A stretch of DNA of 64,000 nt from Dehalococcoidia bacterium (lineage in GTDB: Bacteria; Chloroflexota; Dehalococcoidia; Lucifugimonadales; VXLM01), in the NCBI GenBank assembly GCA_965242665.1, contig OZ251484.1, positions 1,843,531 to 1,907,530 on the forward strand, given 5' to 3'. Made by a program: the position numbers and the translations under genes. Positions 48,690 to 64,000 of the stretch are shown one piece after another; the first letter of the stretch is position 1; each line of letters opens with the position of its first letter. Below the pieces are notes generated by a model. The model was not told the DNA's origin and made no database searches. It was given only the letters and a program-made list of their open reading frames with translations.

Positions 48690-50138
48690 CTATCGTTCCT
48701 GGCTCGACTCGCCGCAGAATGGCAGATCGGATTCGGAGAAGTCGTTGGTCTGTACGAAGCGCAAACTGTTGGGTATACAGCCGGTCAGTTGATTCCCCTC
48801 CAGCCAAAACGCTCGAAGGTTGTAGAGGTTGCCGAGTCCAGGGGGTATTGCGCCGGTGATCTGGTTGCCTGATATGTCCAGCGTTCGCAGGTTGTAGAGG
48901 TTCTCGAGTTCGGCGGGAACCGAGCCGGTCAGCTGATTTTCCTCTAGCCACAGCGCTTGCAGTCTGTCGAGATTGCCCAGTTCTGGGGGTATCACGCCGG
49001 TCAACTGGTTCCACGAGGGGTCTAGCACTTGGAGGTTTTCGAGGTTTCCGAGTTCTGTGGGTATCTCGCCGGCTAGCTGGTTGCGCTGGAGTTCTAGCCG
49101 CTCCAGGTTGTAGAGGTTGCCGAGTTCGGTGGGGATTGATCCGGTCAGCAGGTTATCCGAGAGCAGCAGCGCTTGCAGATTGACGAGGTTTCCGAGTTCT
49201 GTGGGTATCTCGCCGGTTAGCTGGTTGCGTCGGAGTTCTAGCCATTGCAGGTTGTTGAGGTTGCCAAGTTCAACGGGGATGTGTCCAATCAACCGGTTGT
49301 GCCGGAGTTCCAGCCGCTCCAGGCTGCTGAGGTTGCCGAGTTCTGGGGGTATTGTGCCGATCAACTGATTGTCCGAGAGTAGCAGCGCTCTCAGATTGAC
49401 GAGGCTGCTGAGTTCGACGGGCAGTGCGCCAGTCAGCTGGTTGCCCGAGAGTCCCAGTCCTCGCAGGTTGTTGAGGTTTCCGAGTTCTGGGGGTATCGCG
49501 CCGGTCAGCTGGTTATTCGAGAGGGACAGTACTTCCAGATTGACGAGGGTAGTGAGTTCTGTGGGTATTGTGCCGGTCAACTGGTTGTCGTCGATGTACA
49601 GCGCTCTTAGATTGACGAGTCTGCTGAGTTCGGTAGGTATCGTGCCGGTCAGCTGATTGTTATCGAGCCACAACCGTTCCAAGTTGGCGAGGGTAGTGAG
49701 TTCTGTGGGTATTGTGCCGGTCAGCTGGTTGCCGTCGAGATGCAGCTCTTCCAGATTGACGAGGGTAGTGAGTTCGGTGGGTATCTCCCCGGTCAACTGA
49801 TTGTCCGAGATGGTCAGGCTTTCCAAGTTGACGAGGGTAGTGAGTTCGGTCGGTATCTCTCCGGTCAACTGGTTATTGGAGAGATTCAAGTGAGTGACGC
49901 GCCCGGTGTCGTCGGTAGTTACACCGTGCCACTCGCCTATTGGTCGGTTGCTGAGCCAGTGAGTATCGTTCCGCCAGTTCGGCCCGTACGTAGCATAGTA
50001 GAAGCGAGAGAGGGCTTCTATCTCTCCCTTGATATCGGCTGCTTCCTCTTCTTCCGCGGCTGTTGGCGCCGGAGGGTCGCTACACGCGACAAAGAAGAGT
50101 ATCAATGCGGCGCATGTCAAGACGACCTGGGCGGCCAT
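48690..50138 (-). CDS. Leucine-rich repeat lipoprotein, 16 x 24-aa plant-type LRR
   Basis: Lipobox FVAC; N-cap (YYATYGPNW...GEWHGVTTD); repeats LxLxxNQLTGxIPxELGNLxNL; C-cap CIP...LPFC. Confidence 0.92.
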   Translation of the reverse strand: MAAQVVLTCAALILFFVACSDPPAPTAAEEEEAADIKGEIEALSRFYYATYGPNWRNDTHWLSNRPIGEWHGVTTDDTGRVTHLNLSNNQLTGEIPTELTTLVNLESLTISDNQLTGEIPTELTTLVNLEELHLDGNQLTGTIPTELTTLANLERLWLDNNQLTGTIPTELSRLVNLRALYIDDNQLTGTIPTELTTLVNLEVLSLSNNQLTGAIPPELGNLNNLRGLGLSGNQLTGALPVELSSLVNLRALLLSDNQLIGTIPPELGNLSSLERLELRHNRLIGHIPVELGNLNNLQWLELRRNQLTGEIPTELGNLVNLQALLLSDNLLTGSIPTELGNLYNLERLELQRNQLAGEIPTELGNLENLQVLDPSWNQLTGVIPPELGNLDRLQALWLEENQLTGSVPAELENLYNLRTLDISGNQITGAIPPGLGNLYNLRAFWLEGNQLTGCIPNSLRFVQTNDFSESDLPFCGESSQER

Positions 50139-50334
50139 ACGTTCGGGTGAGGGGGTAGAAGAGAGCATCTTGCAATGGTTGCTACGGTCGCGGTTATTGG
50201 GAGATGAGTAACGATTGGCGACGTTCCACCTTCCTGGTTTTCGGATGTGTAATTATACGCGGAGCGTTTGGATATGGTCAACCCAATGGAGTGAGTCATG
50301 GACATGGACGAACAGCAGAATCTCGTGGACGAAA

Positions 50335-51465
50335 CTAGGCTCTCCGCAGCAGCGCTTCCCGCAGTCGGTCTGCGGTGATGCGGGTTTCCTCGTCGGTCAT
50401 GCAGTTGACGACGACGCGCAGGGAGCCGCTCTCGGCGTCGACCCAGATGCGGGGATTGCCGGAGTCGAGCTCCGCGCGGACATCCTCCGCGCTCTTTCCG
50501 ATGATGGACTCGTCGATATCGATGACCATCACGTACGGAACGTAGTGATGTATCTCCGTGCGGCGTACAGCGACGCCGTCCAGGTCGCGGACGGCTTCCT
50601 CGATGTCCGCGAACCGCGCCTCATATTCGAGGATGCGTTCTTCGTGGTACATGGTGAACCAATCTTCGATGGCGGTGACGACGCCGATGATCTCGTGTCG
50701 GTCGATCTTCATGGCGCGCCCGACCGCCTTGCCGCCGTCATAGTGATAGGAGACGAAGCTCTGCGCGGAAACGGCGTCTATCAGATCGCGTTTGCCGCAC
50801 ACGAAACCGGCAGAATGCGGCGCGCCCATGTACTTCGCCCCGAACGTTACGAGATCGGCCGACTGCGCGCACCGGCGGAAGTAGTCCAGGGGGTATATCT
50901 GAGAGCATGCGTCCGCGACCGCAGGGACGCCGTGCGAGCGCGCGATGGCGACCGTGTCTTCCAACGAAACGATGGCGTCGTCGATGGGCGGCTGGATGTA
51001 GTAGGCCACCGCCGCCGTGCGCGGGCCGATGGCGTCGTGCAGATCAGACTCGGACGTTCCCCTACTGTCGCCAGCCTCGACGAGCGCGGCGCCCGTCAGA
51101 GTGTAGCAACGGTCGAACATATAGCGGTTTCGTGCCTGGATGACGACCTGGTCCTTCATGCCGGCGGTATCGGGAAGGCGTGCGATCTTGGCTGGGTCCG
51201 CGCCTGCCATGCACGCCGCAATGCCAAGGGCCTGCGCGGCCGCTCCGCCGGAAGTGACATAGGCAGCCTCGACACCCAATAGGTCGGCGATGAAATCCCC
51301 CGACTTTTGGAGAAGCTCCTGCATCTCGACCGTAGCCTCGTTCGCCTGCTCCATCGCTTGCATTACCTTGCGGCTCGGCGTCCAACCGCCCAGCTCCGTC
51401 GCGACCCCCCAGGCGTTGATGACGCGCCGCACTCCCAGCCGCTCGTATACGTCGATGTTGTTCAT
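50335..51465 (-). CDS. SelA-like PLP-dependent enzyme (DgaE-like)
   Basis: VRRVINAWG, VTSGGAAA, TFGAKYMGAPHSAG, GRAMKIDRHEI. Confidence 0.82.
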   Translation of the reverse strand: MNNIDVYERLGVRRVINAWGVATELGGWTPSRKVMQAMEQANEATVEMQELLQKSGDFIADLLGVEAAYVTSGGAAAQALGIAACMAGADPAKIARLPDTAGMKDQVVIQARNRYMFDRCYTLTGAALVEAGDSRGTSESDLHDAIGPRTAAVAYYIQPPIDDAIVSLEDTVAIARSHGVPAVADACSQIYPLDYFRRCAQSADLVTFGAKYMGAPHSAGFVCGKRDLIDAVSAQSFVSYHYDGGKAVGRAMKIDRHEIIGVVTAIEDWFTMYHEERILEYEARFADIEEAVRDLDGVAVRRTEIHHYVPYVMVIDIDESIIGKSAEDVRAELDSGNPRIWVDAESGSLRVVVNCMTDEETRITADRLREALLRRA

Positions 51466-51568
51466 GATTCTCGAAAACACTCGCGTAGGATGATGGAGTG
51501 GATTGTAGCGGGGGCACGGTCACGTTGTCAACGCAGATGCGCGGCGTATCGACTGCATCCGTCCTGCG

Positions 51569-51630
51569 TTGACTTGTGCGGTCGAGCGGCGCACAATGCT
51601 TCTTGCAGATCCGCTGCGCCGCTCGACCGC
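51569..51630 (+). promoter_or_regulatory. MTase promoter TTGACT-N17-CACAAT with a perfect 16-bp inverted repeat
   Basis: GCGGTCGAGCGGCGCA at 51578-51593 and TGCGCCGCTCGACCGC at 51615-51630; degenerate copy upstream of MTase 2. Confidence 0.6.
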
Positions 51631-51672
51631 TGCATGAAGACCCAACGGCGGCTGCGCTCACTCCCGGCGCCC

Positions 51673-53499
51673 ATGACGGCGGAAGACGAATTCATGCCAG
51701 ATCTCAATACAACCGAACTGGACGGCACCATATTCATCAGCGACAACCTGCCGTTCCTCAAGGCGCTGGACACGGAGAGCGTCGATCTCATCTGCATCGA
51801 TCCTCCTTTCGACAAGAACGAGACGTTTAGCGACGAACTGCGTCCCCCGCTCAGCGAAGAGGAGCAGCGCATCGAGCAGGAGTTGATGGCCGAATGGGGC
51901 GCTTTCGATGAAGAATCCGCATACAAGGCTGGCATCGAGTACCCGGATCAAGACGGTTCGACGGCCAAGTTCGAGGACATATTCCGCTTCGATCAGGACG
52001 TTCACGAGGATTGGATGCAGTCTATCGGGGAGCGGAATCCTGGGTTGGCGCTGCTCATAGAGTCGACGCGCTACACGCACAGCGACAGCAGGGCAGCCTA
52101 TATTGCGTTCATGGCGGAACGGATGCTCGAGATCAGGCGGATCTTGAAGCCGACGGGGAGCGTGTATCTGCACTGCGACGATGCCGCCAACGGATATCTG
52201 CGTCAACTCATGGATGCAGTATTCGGAAAGGATAATTTCCGGAATGAGATAGCATGGAAGCGGACGAACGCCCCGACGGCGTCGGAATATCAGTTCGGGC
52301 GTGTCCATGACACGATATTCATGTATGCCAAGAGCGACCAGACGAGAGTGAATCCGGTGTACATCCCATACGCCAAGGAATACGTTGACGAGCATTTCAA
52401 ATTTGAAGATGAGGGCGGGCGGTTCCAAGTGACCCCGCTGACGGCACAGGGGACAAGACGCGGGGACTCGGGGCGTCCGTGGCGGGGGGTAGACGTCACT
52501 GCCAGGGGGCTGCATTGGGCAAGTCCAAGCGCACTGCCCGAGGGCGTAGAGAAGCCAAGAGAGTATGAGGGAATGACGTCTCAAGAGAAGCTGGATTGGC
52601 TCGACGAACGCGGACTCATCTACTGGCCCAAGCAGGGAAGGATGCCGCGGTTCAAGCGTTACTTGTCTACGAGCCGGGGGACGCGGGCATCGGACTTCAT
52701 AACGGATATTCCGGGGCTGCAAGGGGCGTCGATAGAACGCACCGGCTACCCGACGCAAAAGCCCCAGGCCCTCGCTCTACGCATCATCGAAGCGAGCACC
52801 AATCCCGGCGACATCGTCTTGGACTGCTTCGCCGGCTGCGCCTACGTTCCCGTGGCCGCGCAGGTCACAGGGAGACGGTGGGTCGCCTGCGATATGTCCC
52901 CGCGTGCTTGGACGGTCGTCCGCCGCCAATTTCACAAGCATCAGGACTTGGGAATCGTTACGGAGGGGGAGATCGCCGCAGACGGGGACGGCATGAAGGT
53001 GAACCCCAAGCTGGAAACCGCCAACCGAATCATCAAGGTTCGCGGCCCCCATCAACTGCCGATACGTACTACGCCGGATGAACAAGACGCCGTGCCGGTA
53101 CGGATGCTTTCGCGTCCGCGGTACAAGGTCCGCCCGCACGAAAGCGACCAGAAGATTTGGGATGCGTTCGTAGAGCATTGGGGTTCGGCGTGCTGGTACT
53201 GCGGTGCAGAAACGAGGAGAGACCGCAGGGATCTCCAGATCGATCACGTCGAAGCGAACAAGCGCGACGGCACGAACGACGATTGCTGGAACCGCGCGCT
53301 CGCGTGCATTGCGTGCAACAGCGACAAGAGCAACAAGCTCACGCCAGCCGAGACGATCGCAGTCGCGCTGAAGCAGGGGCGCATCTCGACGTTGGCGCGG
53401 AGCAAAGAAGTGAAGGCGACGTTCGCCGCTCGCCGTCAGTGGGCGAAAGACCGATGGGAGAGGGTCAGGCCAAGGGCAGGTGGAGAGGACGAGGGCTGA
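51673..53499 (+). CDS. Beta-class N4/N6 DNA methyltransferase fused to C-terminal HNH domain, copy 1
   Basis: Motif IV DPPF near the N-terminus, GYPTQKP, motif I DCFAGC, then CWYCG...IDHV...N...CIACNSDK. Start by analogy to copy 2 (alternative ATG 51694). Confidence 0.9.
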   Translation: MTAEDEFMPDLNTTELDGTIFISDNLPFLKALDTESVDLICIDPPFDKNETFSDELRPPLSEEEQRIEQELMAEWGAFDEESAYKAGIEYPDQDGSTAKFEDIFRFDQDVHEDWMQSIGERNPGLALLIESTRYTHSDSRAAYIAFMAERMLEIRRILKPTGSVYLHCDDAANGYLRQLMDAVFGKDNFRNEIAWKRTNAPTASEYQFGRVHDTIFMYAKSDQTRVNPVYIPYAKEYVDEHFKFEDEGGRFQVTPLTAQGTRRGDSGRPWRGVDVTARGLHWASPSALPEGVEKPREYEGMTSQEKLDWLDERGLIYWPKQGRMPRFKRYLSTSRGTRASDFITDIPGLQGASIERTGYPTQKPQALALRIIEASTNPGDIVLDCFAGCAYVPVAAQVTGRRWVACDMSPRAWTVVRRQFHKHQDLGIVTEGEIAADGDGMKVNPKLETANRIIKVRGPHQLPIRTTPDEQDAVPVRMLSRPRYKVRPHESDQKIWDAFVEHWGSACWYCGAETRRDRRDLQIDHVEANKRDGTNDDCWNRALACIACNSDKSNKLTPAETIAVALKQGRISTLARSKEVKATFAARRQWAKDRWERVRPRAGGEDEG

Positions 53500-53567
53500 C
53501 TGACGCGGCGGCAATGCTTCTGGGTATACATCCGCCAGCCGCAACCCGTGAACGCAAGGTGAGGCTG

Positions 53568-53786
53568 GGTTCCGTTTACTTTTGCGGCATGACGGCTGGG
53601 GGACGGCAACTCTCCAAAGCGGTGCGTCCAATCGCGCAACGGGAGATTCCCGCCTACGCGGGAATGACCGAGCTCCGCTTCTTGTTCTTCTTGGCGTTCC
53701 GGGAGATTCCCGCCTACGCGGGAATGACGGAGAGTCCAACCTTTTGCGGCCTGGGCGCAATCCATGCCGCAAAAGTAAACGGTAAG
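53568..53786. mobile_element. MITE-like insertion with 20-bp perfect inverted repeats and 8-9 bp target-site duplication
   Basis: CCGTTTACTTTTGCGGCATG at 53572-53591 and its reverse complement at 53763-53782. (G)TGAGGCTG at 53559-53567 and 53786-53794. Two internal dRS3-like palindromes 60 bp apart. Confidence 0.8.
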
Positions 53787-53912
53787 TGAGGCTGCATCCG
53801 TCCTGCGTTGACTTGTGCGGTCGAGCGGTGCACAATACTTCTTGCAGATCCGTTGCGGCCGCTCGAACGCTGCATGAAGACCCAATAGCGGCTTCGCGCA
53901 CTCCCTGCGCCC

Positions 53913-55700
53913 ATGACGGTGGAAGGCGAAATCATGCCAGAGCTCAATACAACCGAACTGGACGGCACCATATTCATCAGCGACAACCTGCCGTTCCTCA
54001 AGGCGCTGGACACGGAGAGCGTCGATCTCATCTGCATCGACCCGCCGTTCGGGAAGAAGCAGACGTTCGTCGGAAATTTGAATCCGCCTCTGTCCCAAGA
54101 AGAGATCCTGATCGAACGAGAGTTGATGGACTCGTGGGGGGCATACGACCCTCAGAGCGCATACGAGATTGGCTTAGAGTATCCCGACCAGTCGGGTAGG
54201 ACGGCCAACTTCGAGGATATCTGGGATTTCAGGGTGCGCGTCTATAAAGACTGGTTCGAGAGTCTTCAAGACATATGTCCCAGCGCGTACTGGTTGATAC
54301 AGGCGACGCGCCATACGCACAGCGAGGGCATTGCCGCGTACATCGCATTTATGGTCGAGCGTGTGTTGGAAATGCGGCGAATCCTGAAGCCGACGGGGAG
54401 TATCTATGTACACTGCGACCACACCGCCAACGCATATCTGCGGCAGATGATGGACGCAGTATTTGGCCTGGATAACTTCTTGAACGAAATCACTTGGCAG
54501 CGCGTGGCGACGAAGAAAGGCAACTTGACCAGGGGGCTTGCCAACGATACGGATACGATTCTCCGATACGGCAAGAACGCCAGCAAGGTCGTTTGGAACG
54601 CCGACGCCGTTACTGCCCCCTACGCCCCGGACAACCTGCCTGAGACGATTGCGAAGAAATACACGCACAGCGATCCCGACGGCAGGCTATGGAGATTGAC
54701 TGAGATAACCTCCCCGTCTCAAAATTCCGATCCTTCGAAGACGTTCGAGGTCATGGGGGTTACTCGCACGTGGCGATGGAAACGGGAGAGAATAGAGCAG
54801 GAGATAGCCAACGGACGGATCATCCAGATGAGGCCCGGCGCTGTCCCGCGCTACAAGAGATACTTGGATGAGCAAAGAGGATTGACGATCAACAACCTCT
54901 GGACCGACATCAACAACCTCAACTCCATGGCGAGGGAGCGCACCGGTTATCCCACACAGAAGCCCCAGGCCCTCGCCCGGCGCATCATCGAGATGAGCAC
55001 CAACCCCGGCGACATCGTCTTGGACTGCTTCGCCGGCTGCGCCTACGTTCCTGTGGCCGCGCAGATCACAGGGCGGCGATGGATCGCCTGCGATATGTCC
55101 CCGCGCGCTTGGACGATCGTCCGCCGCCAATTTCACAAGCATCAGGACTTGGGCATCGTTACGGAGGGGGAAATCGCCGCAGACGAGAAGGGCGTGAAAG
55201 TGAGTCCCAAGCTGGAAACCGCCAACCGAATCATCAAGGTTCGCGGACCGAATCAGCTGCCCGTGAGAACCACCGAAGACGTACAGGAACCTCTACCGGC
55301 ACGGAGGCTTCCTCGGCCTCAATACAAGGTGCGCCCCTATGAGACCGATCAGGAGATATGGGACGCCTTCGTGGATCAGTACGGTACGTCCTGTTGGTAC
55401 TGCGGCGCCGAGACGAGAAGAGACCGCAGGGAGCTTCACCTCGATCACATCGAGCCAAACAGCCGTGACGGCACGAACAATGACTGTTGGAACCGCGCGC
55501 TTGCCTGCTCGCCGTGCAACAGCGACAAGAGCAACAAGCTCACGCCAACCGAGACGACCGCATTCGCGCTGAAGCAGGGGCGCATCTCGACGCTGGCGCG
55601 GAGCAAAGAGGTGAAGGCGACGTTCGCCGCTCGCCATCAGTGGGCGAAAGACCGATGGGAGAGGATCAGGCCGAGGACAGGCGGAGATGACGAGGACTGA
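53913..55700 (+). CDS. Beta-class N4/N6 DNA methyltransferase fused to C-terminal HNH domain, copy 2
   Basis: Same motifs as copy 1 (DPPF, GYPTQKP, DCFAGC, CWYCG...LDHI...CSPCNSDK); central region unrelated. Confidence 0.9.
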   Translation: MTVEGEIMPELNTTELDGTIFISDNLPFLKALDTESVDLICIDPPFGKKQTFVGNLNPPLSQEEILIERELMDSWGAYDPQSAYEIGLEYPDQSGRTANFEDIWDFRVRVYKDWFESLQDICPSAYWLIQATRHTHSEGIAAYIAFMVERVLEMRRILKPTGSIYVHCDHTANAYLRQMMDAVFGLDNFLNEITWQRVATKKGNLTRGLANDTDTILRYGKNASKVVWNADAVTAPYAPDNLPETIAKKYTHSDPDGRLWRLTEITSPSQNSDPSKTFEVMGVTRTWRWKRERIEQEIANGRIIQMRPGAVPRYKRYLDEQRGLTINNLWTDINNLNSMARERTGYPTQKPQALARRIIEMSTNPGDIVLDCFAGCAYVPVAAQITGRRWIACDMSPRAWTIVRRQFHKHQDLGIVTEGEIAADEKGVKVSPKLETANRIIKVRGPNQLPVRTTEDVQEPLPARRLPRPQYKVRPYETDQEIWDAFVDQYGTSCWYCGAETRRDRRELHLDHIEPNSRDGTNNDCWNRALACSPCNSDKSNKLTPTETTAFALKQGRISTLARSKEVKATFAARHQWAKDRWERIRPRTGGDDED

Positions 55701-55823
55701 CTGACGCCGCGGCAATGCTTCTGGTACACATCCGCCAGCCGCAGCCCGTGAACGCAGGGCGAGGCTGTGCATCCGACGAATTGAGACAATACGCGCGTCC
55801 TCGCGCCGACGGCGAGGACCGCC

Positions 55824-63356: not shown

Positions 63357-64000
63357 TTACCCATTGCAGCCATCATTGGTTCTCACGTTAGTTCGTCTTT
63401 GACTTCCTCCGGACTTCTTCCCGTTGCATGGACGACACAGCAGTTACCCGATTCGTGATGTAGTTCTCGCCGCCATCCTTCTCCGGCAAGATATGGTCGA
63501 TCTCCATGTATTCACTCTCCATCTCCCGACCGCATCCGGCACACGTGACGAGACCAGTCGCCGTACCCTGCGCTTCCGCAGGATAGTCGAACATCTCATG
63601 CCGAAACAGCCGCTGCCCCTTCTCCGGCTGCCGCTGCCACTCGAGCCTGAGGTCCGGAGTGGCAACCTCCCCATCGTCCGTCCGCTCCGGCGGCGTCTGA
63701 GTTACCGTCAGATGCTCCAAAGCGAACATCCGCTTCTCCGCCTCCAAGCGGCTGACGGTAAGGTCTTTCGTTTCTTCCCAAAGGTCGATGGCGACCCACT
63801 GACGGTTCAATCGCTCCGCCGCCACAGCCGTCGTGGCGCACCCGGCGAACGGGTCGAGCACAAGATCGCCTTCGTTGGACGATGCCCTGATGATGCGTTC
63901 GTACAAGGCGAGAGGTTTCTGGGTTGGGTAGCCGACCATTTCCTTGATCAACCGTTGTACTGGTGTTATGTCTGACCACCAATCCATTACTACTTTGCCC
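63357..64000 (-). pseudogene. 3' part of a third DNA methyltransferase-HNH fusion, frameshifted within the HNH (5' end outside window)
   Basis: GYPTQKP, DPFAGC, CAGCG...IDHILP...NRV. An extra A at 63444/63445 diverts the frame; the shifted frame reads LLCRPCNGKK to a stop at 63357. Frame is open to base 64000. Confidence 0.75.

Follow-up and report, generated by a model that had tools for sequence, protein, structure and literature searches.

Two adjacent genes, A and B, in a 64,000-nucleotide stretch of a Dehalococcoidia bacterium genome (GenBank assembly GCA_965242665.1, contig OZ251484.1, positions 1,843,531 to 1,907,530 of the forward strand; hereafter the window, numbered from its first letter) each carry a beta-class DNA methyltransferase (MTase), a mid-chain target recognition domain (TRD) and, at the C-terminus, a nuclease domain of the HNH type in a single polypeptide. 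We conclude that they probably encode single-chain restriction-modification (R-M) enzymes of an MTase-TRD-HNH family, and that the pair represents old alleles joined in tandem within a repertoire that diversifies by shuffling of modules.

Gene A (51673-53499, + strand) encodes 608 amino acids (aa) beginning MTAEDEF, in a stop-to-stop frame that opens at 51307, and gene B (53913-55700, + strand) is an open reading frame (ORF) of 595 aa. The two are head-to-tail tandem paralogs whose proteins are 62% identical overall. Both proteins matched PF01555 (N6_N4_Mtase), A over aa 37-412 (E 5e-36) and B over aa 37-401 (E 4e-39), with a large insertion in the middle of the match, and both matched PF01844 (HNH) near the C-terminus with a score above the gathering threshold, placing methyltransferase and nuclease in one ORF in each case. 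In gene A, motif IV (DPPF) lies at 51799-51810, the end of motif VIII at 52243-52263, TRD_A at about 52264-52743 between motifs VIII and X, motif X (GYPTQKP) at 52744-52764, motif I (DCFAGC) at 52822-52839 and the HNH domain at 53191-53328, all on the + strand. The corresponding elements of gene B, on the same strand, are DPPF at 54039-54050, the mid-chain TRD_B at about 54504-54944, GYPTQKP at 54945-54965, DCFAGC at 55023-55040 and the HNH domain at 55392-55529. DPPF falls at aa 43-46, the motif order IV...X-I is that of the beta class, and the HNH domain is at the C-terminus.

Among NCBIfam and PADLOC profiles, A and B matched only beta-class Type II and Type III methylase models, the PADLOC MTase_III models at E 1e-33 to 1e-35, together with generic HNH models. 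A structure of gene B modelled with AF2 (pLDDT 86.4) had its best PDB matches by Foldseek in Type III Mod proteins (EcoP15I Mod, 4zcf, and H. pylori Mod, 6k0w; E 5e-18, 435-477 columns), and the nearest solved proteins by sequence were M.MboIIA, M.RsrI, CcrM and Mod. The HNH signature CWYCG...DH...N...CxxCN..K is complete in both proteins, comprising the beta-beta-alpha-metal motif D-H...N...N and the CxxC...CxxC zinc ligands. Across 80 family members, residues C494, C497, D511, H512, N527, C532 and C535 were invariant, N536 and K539 were at least 90% conserved, and DPPF and FxGxG were invariant or nearly so; in the comparison of A with B, dN/dS (nonsynonymous over synonymous divergence) of the HNH domain was ~0.1. 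No Res, S or helicase gene was seen among the neighbours of the locus. An initial annotation, made from the letters and their ORFs, had described two tandem paralogs of ~600 aa with intact HNH motifs and no separate Res or S gene, and this description holds in full.

The genes belong to a large family in their own genome. Six-frame searches of the 3.49-Mb genome (two contigs) identified 46 MTase-HNH loci that together occupy 2.0% of its DNA, 41 of them as one intact ORF and 5 with a frameshift. The corresponding tblastn searches returned 67 segments in this genome and 0-10 in each of 15 congeners. All relatives of the genome were Dehalococcoidia metagenome-assembled genomes, which we take to include sponge- and coral-derived bins. 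The C-terminal module of the A/B type occurred in only 15 of 151 sampled Dehalococcoidia genomes, and because a search with the A/B-type linker, HNH and tail recovered only 13 cluster representatives at E<=1e-30, this module defines a narrow Dehalococcoidia subfamily. The overall MTase-HNH architecture has thousands of members: at least 3,986 proteins matched at E<=1e-3 in one search and at least 6,443 at E<=1e-60 in another, nearly all relatives among the matches listed carrying both domains; names on these database relatives were missing, or merely "DNA modification methylase/McrA". No recurrent partner gene, Res and transposase included, was found beside the 46 copies. Three further head-to-tail pairs (C1:452939/454715, 1810171/1812107 and 2798382/2799887, in genome coordinates) show that the tandem arrangement is recurrent in this genome, and near-identical duplicates are also dispersed through it (2160280/2408802, 100% over 1700 nucleotides (nt); 3038794/3287006, 99.8% over 1540 nt). 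Sister fusions in this genome join the same beta-class methylase chassis to a C-terminal Mrr_cat nuclease of the PD-(D/E)XK type (C1:584443-586071, 1196800-1198476 and 530450-532015); C1:2305874-2307295 is probably another.

DNA homology among the paralogs is limited to two blocks of coding sequence, with a break at the TRD, and does not extend past the ORF boundaries. When the 41 intact copies were clustered at >=50% identity for the TRD and >=80% for the backbone, they fell into 32 TRD clusters and 19 backbone clusters. Comparing modules among these paralogs and 120 database relatives, we found 56 pairs whose N-terminal and C-terminal parts were >=80% identical and whose TRDs were <40% identical; C1:2755350 and C1:826753, for example, share 94% of the N part and 97% of the C part and only 20% of the TRD. 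Conversely, TRDs 60-80% identical to each other were found on backbones <45% identical. Because backbones are shared by different TRDs and similar TRDs sit on distant backbones, the proposal that TRDs have been shuffled within the family is well supported by these comparisons.

Decay of the family members was one-sided. The HNH domain is frameshifted in 5 of the 46 copies and carries catalytic substitutions in 3 more (DH>DY, CN>CG and CN>CD), leaving ~8 with a disabled HNH, and DPPF and motif I are kept in all 46. One such copy, a third MTase-HNH paralog, lies within the window at 63388-64000 (- strand; C1:1906921-1908249) and runs off its end; its methylase motifs are intact and its HNH domain is broken after YITNRV by one extra base (GTAACTG where relatives read V-L-L-C). 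One-sided decay of this kind would be expected if the nuclease were harmful without its methylase. In four paralogs of one subfamily (C1:2160280-2161885, 2408802-2410407, 3038794-3040231 and 3287006-3288441, outside the window) a poly-G tract at the linker between MTase and HNH (G9, G9, G9 and G7) divides the coding sequence, leaving one ORF for the methylase and another for the HNH, and three metagenome relatives (L050, L051 and L052) carry poly-G at the same place (G9, G9 and G6) and are also split. Since intact paralogs read GCG GGN GGG GTG at the linker, a tract of G8 would keep the frame. One pair of copies with 99.8% identity has G9 in one member and G7 in the other, and the linker tract fits either a phase-variable switch that sheds the nuclease or a mutational hotspot. 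In genes A and B no single-base run reaches 7 nt. Elsewhere in the genome, paralog 1158127 has a C17 tract at its 5' end (C1:1158136), and a Type III-like mod gene (1920463-1922187) immediately downstream of paralog 1918476 has a G12 tract (C1:1920620) in its 5' part; these are two more candidates for phase-variable tracts.

These observations bear on what the HNH domain does. The genes have no partner, stand among housekeeping genes with host-like GC content, persist in many copies with the HNH disabled and the methylase intact, and in some copies contain simple-sequence tracts, all of which would suit a repertoire of orphan or regulatory methylases resembling a phasevarion, the HNH domain acting as a DNA clamp or as a repair or recombination nickase and not in defence. 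We consider this unlikely. The HNH catalytic and zinc residues are invariant across the 80 members, with a low dN/dS; the sister fusions replace HNH by a different nuclease, Mrr_cat; and loss strikes only the nuclease, never the methylase.

We read the history of the pair from a codon-wise comparison of dS and dN along the aligned genes, which gave a mosaic. Over aa 1-40 (A residues) and the promoter dS was ~0 and dN low, and an exact run of 98 nt from 51703 (53943 in B) falls here. In the catalytic core (aa 41-200) dS was 1.4-3, that is saturated, and dN 0.13-0.6. The TRDs (aa 198-345 in A, 198-332 in B), flanked by NEI(A/T)W and GYPTQKP, were unalignable for dS and dN, with 18-25% identity and many gaps. 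Motifs X-I (aa 350-440) then showed a dS of 0.21-0.25 with low dN, and the block 52730-53030 was 87-100% identical, after which divergence rose again in the linker and HNH (aa 450-530; dS 1-1.9, dN 0.13-0.2), the block 53030-53270 being 70-80% identical at the DNA level. Over the last ~75 codons and the 3' flank dS was 0.07-0.3 with low dN, and the final ~230 nt were 90-97% identical. This profile shows A and B to be old lineages, subject to purifying selection and patched in recent times by gene conversion, and not a recent duplicate with a swapped TRD. A simple TRD swap between A and B was ruled out by the dS profile, in which the N-terminal core and the HNH domain are as anciently diverged as the TRD. 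The initial annotation had noted the ~100 identical bases at the 5' end and the unalignable region of ~150 aa before GYPTQKP, both of which we recovered. Its further claim of near-identity from TGYPTQKP through the HNH stands for the motif X-I block and fails for the HNH block, and its proposal that the genes diversify by TRD swapping is borne out at the level of the family but not for the A/B pair itself.

The initial annotation had also suggested searching metagenomic reads for other TRDs between these flanks, and other metagenomes did have several alternative alleles there. Between the SelA-like gene and hisIE, L044 carries a single A-type gene (P0001) that is 90% identical to A, L043 a single gene that is a B/A chimera, L045 an A-B tandem, and L046 a B/A chimera with the beginning of a further unit behind it. 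The gene B orthologs in L043, L045 and L046 are 94-96% identical to B over the N-terminal core and TRD. The gene in L043 and L046 is 93-100% B-like to about 52900 (A coordinates) and then 94-98% A-like through the HNH domain; both are natural recombinants with a breakpoint inside the homogenised motif X-I patch, the unit of exchange being the MTase and TRD module on one side and the HNH module on the other. In five congeners the interval between the SelA-like gene and hisIE holds an SDR gene and a lipoprotein gene, with or without a PIN gene, and none of them offers an empty site. Beside the SelA-like gene in congener G004 (L058, 4196-6132), a 480-aa beta-class methylase is followed by a 130-aa ORF for a DUF559/Vsr-like small endonuclease, perhaps the design of the MTase-HNH fusion divided between two ORFs.

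The ends of the two units are alike. The 5' flank of unit 1 (51553-51672, + strand) begins with CTGCATCCG (51553-51561) and contains a promoter-like TTGACT-17-CACAAT at 51569-51597, and that of unit 2 (53792-53912, + strand) has CTGCATCCG at 53792-53800 and the same promoter-like element at 53808-53836. On the 3' side, the flank of unit 1 (53500-53567, + strand) ends in GTGAGGCTG and that of unit 2 (55701-55775, + strand) in GAGGCTG followed by TGCATCCG (55768-55775), the right-hand microhomology. As the initial annotation had it, promoter and 3' flanks were duplicated together (51553-51618 and 53792-53857, 95% identity; 53523-53567 and 55723-55767, 91%), with microhomology at the three unit ends, where TGCATCCG lies at 51554, 53793 and 55768; it occurs just 4 times in the 64-kb window. 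A possible reading of TGCATCCG as the target duplication of an inserted cassette was weighed against the five congener intervals, none of them empty, and against the single-copy strain L043, from which the left copy of TGCATCCG is absent. The left end of the array reads CGA|CTGCATCCG|TCCTGCG, the right end GAGG|CTGTGCATCCG|ACG, and the middle junction GAGG|CTGCATCCG|TCCTGCG, which is the product that unequal exchange inside a microhomology of 9-11 base pairs (bp) would produce.

Microhomology at the unit ends would also suit a selfish homing or addiction cassette, whose HNH nuclease would attack any genome or allele without the matching methylation, so that the gene is copied in (homing) or segregants are killed, and whose 46 copies and polymorphism would reflect self-spread and not host defence. 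That the homology of paralogs stops at ORF boundaries, that copies are dispersed over unrelated loci, that presence, allele and copy number at the locus vary among strains, and that the L050 relative sits between insertion sequence (IS)-type transposases all speak for such a cassette. The flanks of A and B, however, have no further copy elsewhere in the genome and carry neither terminal repeats nor a transposase, and no congener shows a clean empty site, the SDR and lipoprotein genes occupying the interval. This explanation seems to us improbable, and it overlaps with the R-M reading because ordinary R-M systems are themselves known for selfish behaviour. A mobile cassette with conserved ends was rejected, given that the A/B flanks are unique in the genome and that neither a transposase nor any other recurrent gene stands beside the 46 copies.

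At the A/B junction lies a 218-bp element (53568-53785) that we identify as a miniature inverted-repeat transposable element (MITE). It has perfect terminal inverted repeats of 20 nt (53572-53591 and 53763-53782), a duplicated target site of 9 bp (GTGAGGCTG, 53559-53567 and 53786-53794), an interior with two 33-nt repeats resembling repetitive extragenic palindromes (CGGGAGATTCCCGCCTACGCGGGAATGAC), hundreds of copies or fragments of itself and of its 33-nt core across the genome, and an empty site in a relative: in L045 the tandem lacks the element and its junction reads GAGGCTGCATCC. Because this independent assembly has the same A-B junction without the MITE, the tandem is real and the element arrived after it had formed. 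An assembly artefact, in which two strain alleles of a single-copy gene were wrongly laid in tandem, would accord with the single-copy A-only and B-type-only versions of the locus in other samples, but it is excluded with very little residual doubt because L045, from another sample, has the tandem and the junction here carries a MITE with its own target duplication, and L046 has a further unit after its B-type gene.

We therefore return to the R-M reading and propose the following model. Each gene would encode a self-contained Mod-like enzyme in which the beta-class amino-methyltransferase (DPPF, probably N6-adenine), the mid-chain TRD and the C-terminal zinc-stabilised HNH act together. The TRD would read a short DNA word, the methylase would mark the host copies of that word, and the tethered HNH would cleave foreign DNA lacking the mark, at the word or close by. 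Two protomers or two sites are probably needed for cleavage, which we assume by analogy with Type III enzymes, MmeI or FokI. With a single TRD setting both protection and attack, a swap of TRD would retarget the two together, and A and B would be expected to differ in specificity and in the motifs that they methylate. A-type and B-type genes are two old alleles segregating in the population at the SelA-like|hisIE locus; unequal or illegitimate recombination within the 9-11-bp CTG(TG)CATCCG microhomology would have placed them head to tail. Gene conversion later homogenised three patches, namely the promoter with the first 40 codons, motif X-I, and the last ~75 codons with the 3' flank; these act as crossover points, and the natural chimeras pair the MTase and TRD of B with the HNH of A. 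Insertion of the MITE at the junction is a later event. The pair is one node of a 46-member repertoire, with 32 TRD types distributed over 19 backbones, that arose through shuffling of modules in the same way. A broader and more tentative extension, which we regard as possible, is a genome-wide combinatorial immune repertoire, in which ~46 Mod-like MTase-TRD-HNH genes and their MTase-Mrr sisters recombine at conserved patches and so place TRDs and nuclease modules on different backbones, copies and alleles vary among strains at single loci, and one subfamily has a poly-G switch in the linker for shedding the nuclease with the protective methylase retained.

Several points weigh against this model. 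Mod-type enzymes usually mark one strand. Since replication of a site marked on one strand yields a daughter duplex that has no mark, restriction would be safe only with an extra rule, here the assumed two-site or dimer requirement. The HNH domain could nick DNA or have another role, and 41 intact restriction nucleases in a 3.5-Mb genome would be a heavy potential load of self-toxicity. The poly-G frameshifts could be homopolymer errors of assembly or sequencing, or plain decay rather than a switch. Enzymatic or methylome data for any family member were not found in the literature.

If the proteins do restrict DNA, they would form a compact class of R-M enzyme (430-610 aa) with a Type III Mod chassis and a tethered HNH, a class absent among characterised Type IIC/IIG enzymes. 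The family would also make a concrete model in which to study how bacteria alter their restriction specificity and survive. Were the combinatorial repertoire also true, it would represent a minimal R-M enzyme of a new class and a new escape from the lethality of a change in specificity. The natural crossover at 52730-53000 and the A/B chimeras found in nature suggest exchangeable specificities for enzyme engineering. R-M functions have been reported to be enriched in sponge symbionts (PMC5649159, PMC5099237), and the 46-copy expansion in an uncultured Dehalococcoidia would offer a gene-level basis for that enrichment.

Around A and B the neighbours are the SelA-like gene upstream and hisIE and then a luciferase-like gene downstream. 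Also in the window, at 48690-50168 (- strand), lies a gene for a 492-aa secreted or lipoprotein-like protein with ~16 plant-type leucine-rich repeats (LxxLxLxxNxLTGxIP), eukaryote-like and of a type typical for host-associated symbionts.

Among known systems, the single-polypeptide Type IIC/IIG enzymes (MmeI, Eco57I, BpuSI, TstI) are alike in holding methylase, recognition and nuclease in one chain, with one recognition module serving both activities; MmeI functions without a separate methylase (PMC4081073), and allelic TRD diversity is described for Type IIG genes as well (Furuta et al. 2010, PMC2853133). In most Type IIC enzymes a PD-(D/E)XK nuclease at the N-terminus is combined with a methylase of the gamma class, BtgZI being the noted exception (alpha-class MTase, C-terminal PD-(D/Q)XK; Pingoud et al. 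2014, PMC4081073). Whereas the characterised enzymes of the common layout place the TRD at the C-terminus, the MTase-HNH family is beta-class, has its TRD mid-chain and its HNH at the C-terminus, and is only 430-610 aa long; domain matches and motif order thus agree with the initial annotation, which had set the one-polypeptide layout apart from the Type IIC/IIG norm. A beta-class methylase with a C-terminal HNH is mentioned neither in PMC4081073 nor in a 2025 review (PMC12707154). That annotation had also called the family little studied, and we found no paper describing a beta-MTase-HNH fusion in the full-text literature, although publications beyond the reach of such a search may describe a characterised member. 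The family is an uncharacterised, probable variant of single-polypeptide R-M, its function being predicted from sequence.

Phasevarions resemble some of the MTase-HNH paralogs in that the product is altered by a homopolymer tract within the coding sequence. They differ in the position and consequence of the tract, which here lies in the inter-domain linker, where a change of length would drop the nuclease only and keep the methylase; it is present in 4 paralogs and not in A or B, and is known from tract lengths in assembled sequence.

Type III Mod proteins (EcoP15I 4zcf, H. pylori 6k0w, Mbo45V 7dsu) are the best match by structure and by sequence profile, with the same beta-class motif order and a TRD between motifs VIII and X. 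It is established that mod genes exchange TRD cassettes and undergo simple-sequence phase variation. Type III systems differ in having a Res subunit (an SF2 ATPase plus PD-(D/E)XK), which was not found near any of the 46 copies; an HNH domain is fused at the C-terminus instead. Finally, MboII is a Type IIS system in which R.MboII is listed as an HNH enzyme (PMC4081073) and works with a separate beta-class methylase, M.MboIIA (1g60), the best PDB match by sequence. In that system R and M are made as two proteins that do not share a recognition module but have one apiece, whereas the MTase-HNH family combines the two in one chain with one TRD.

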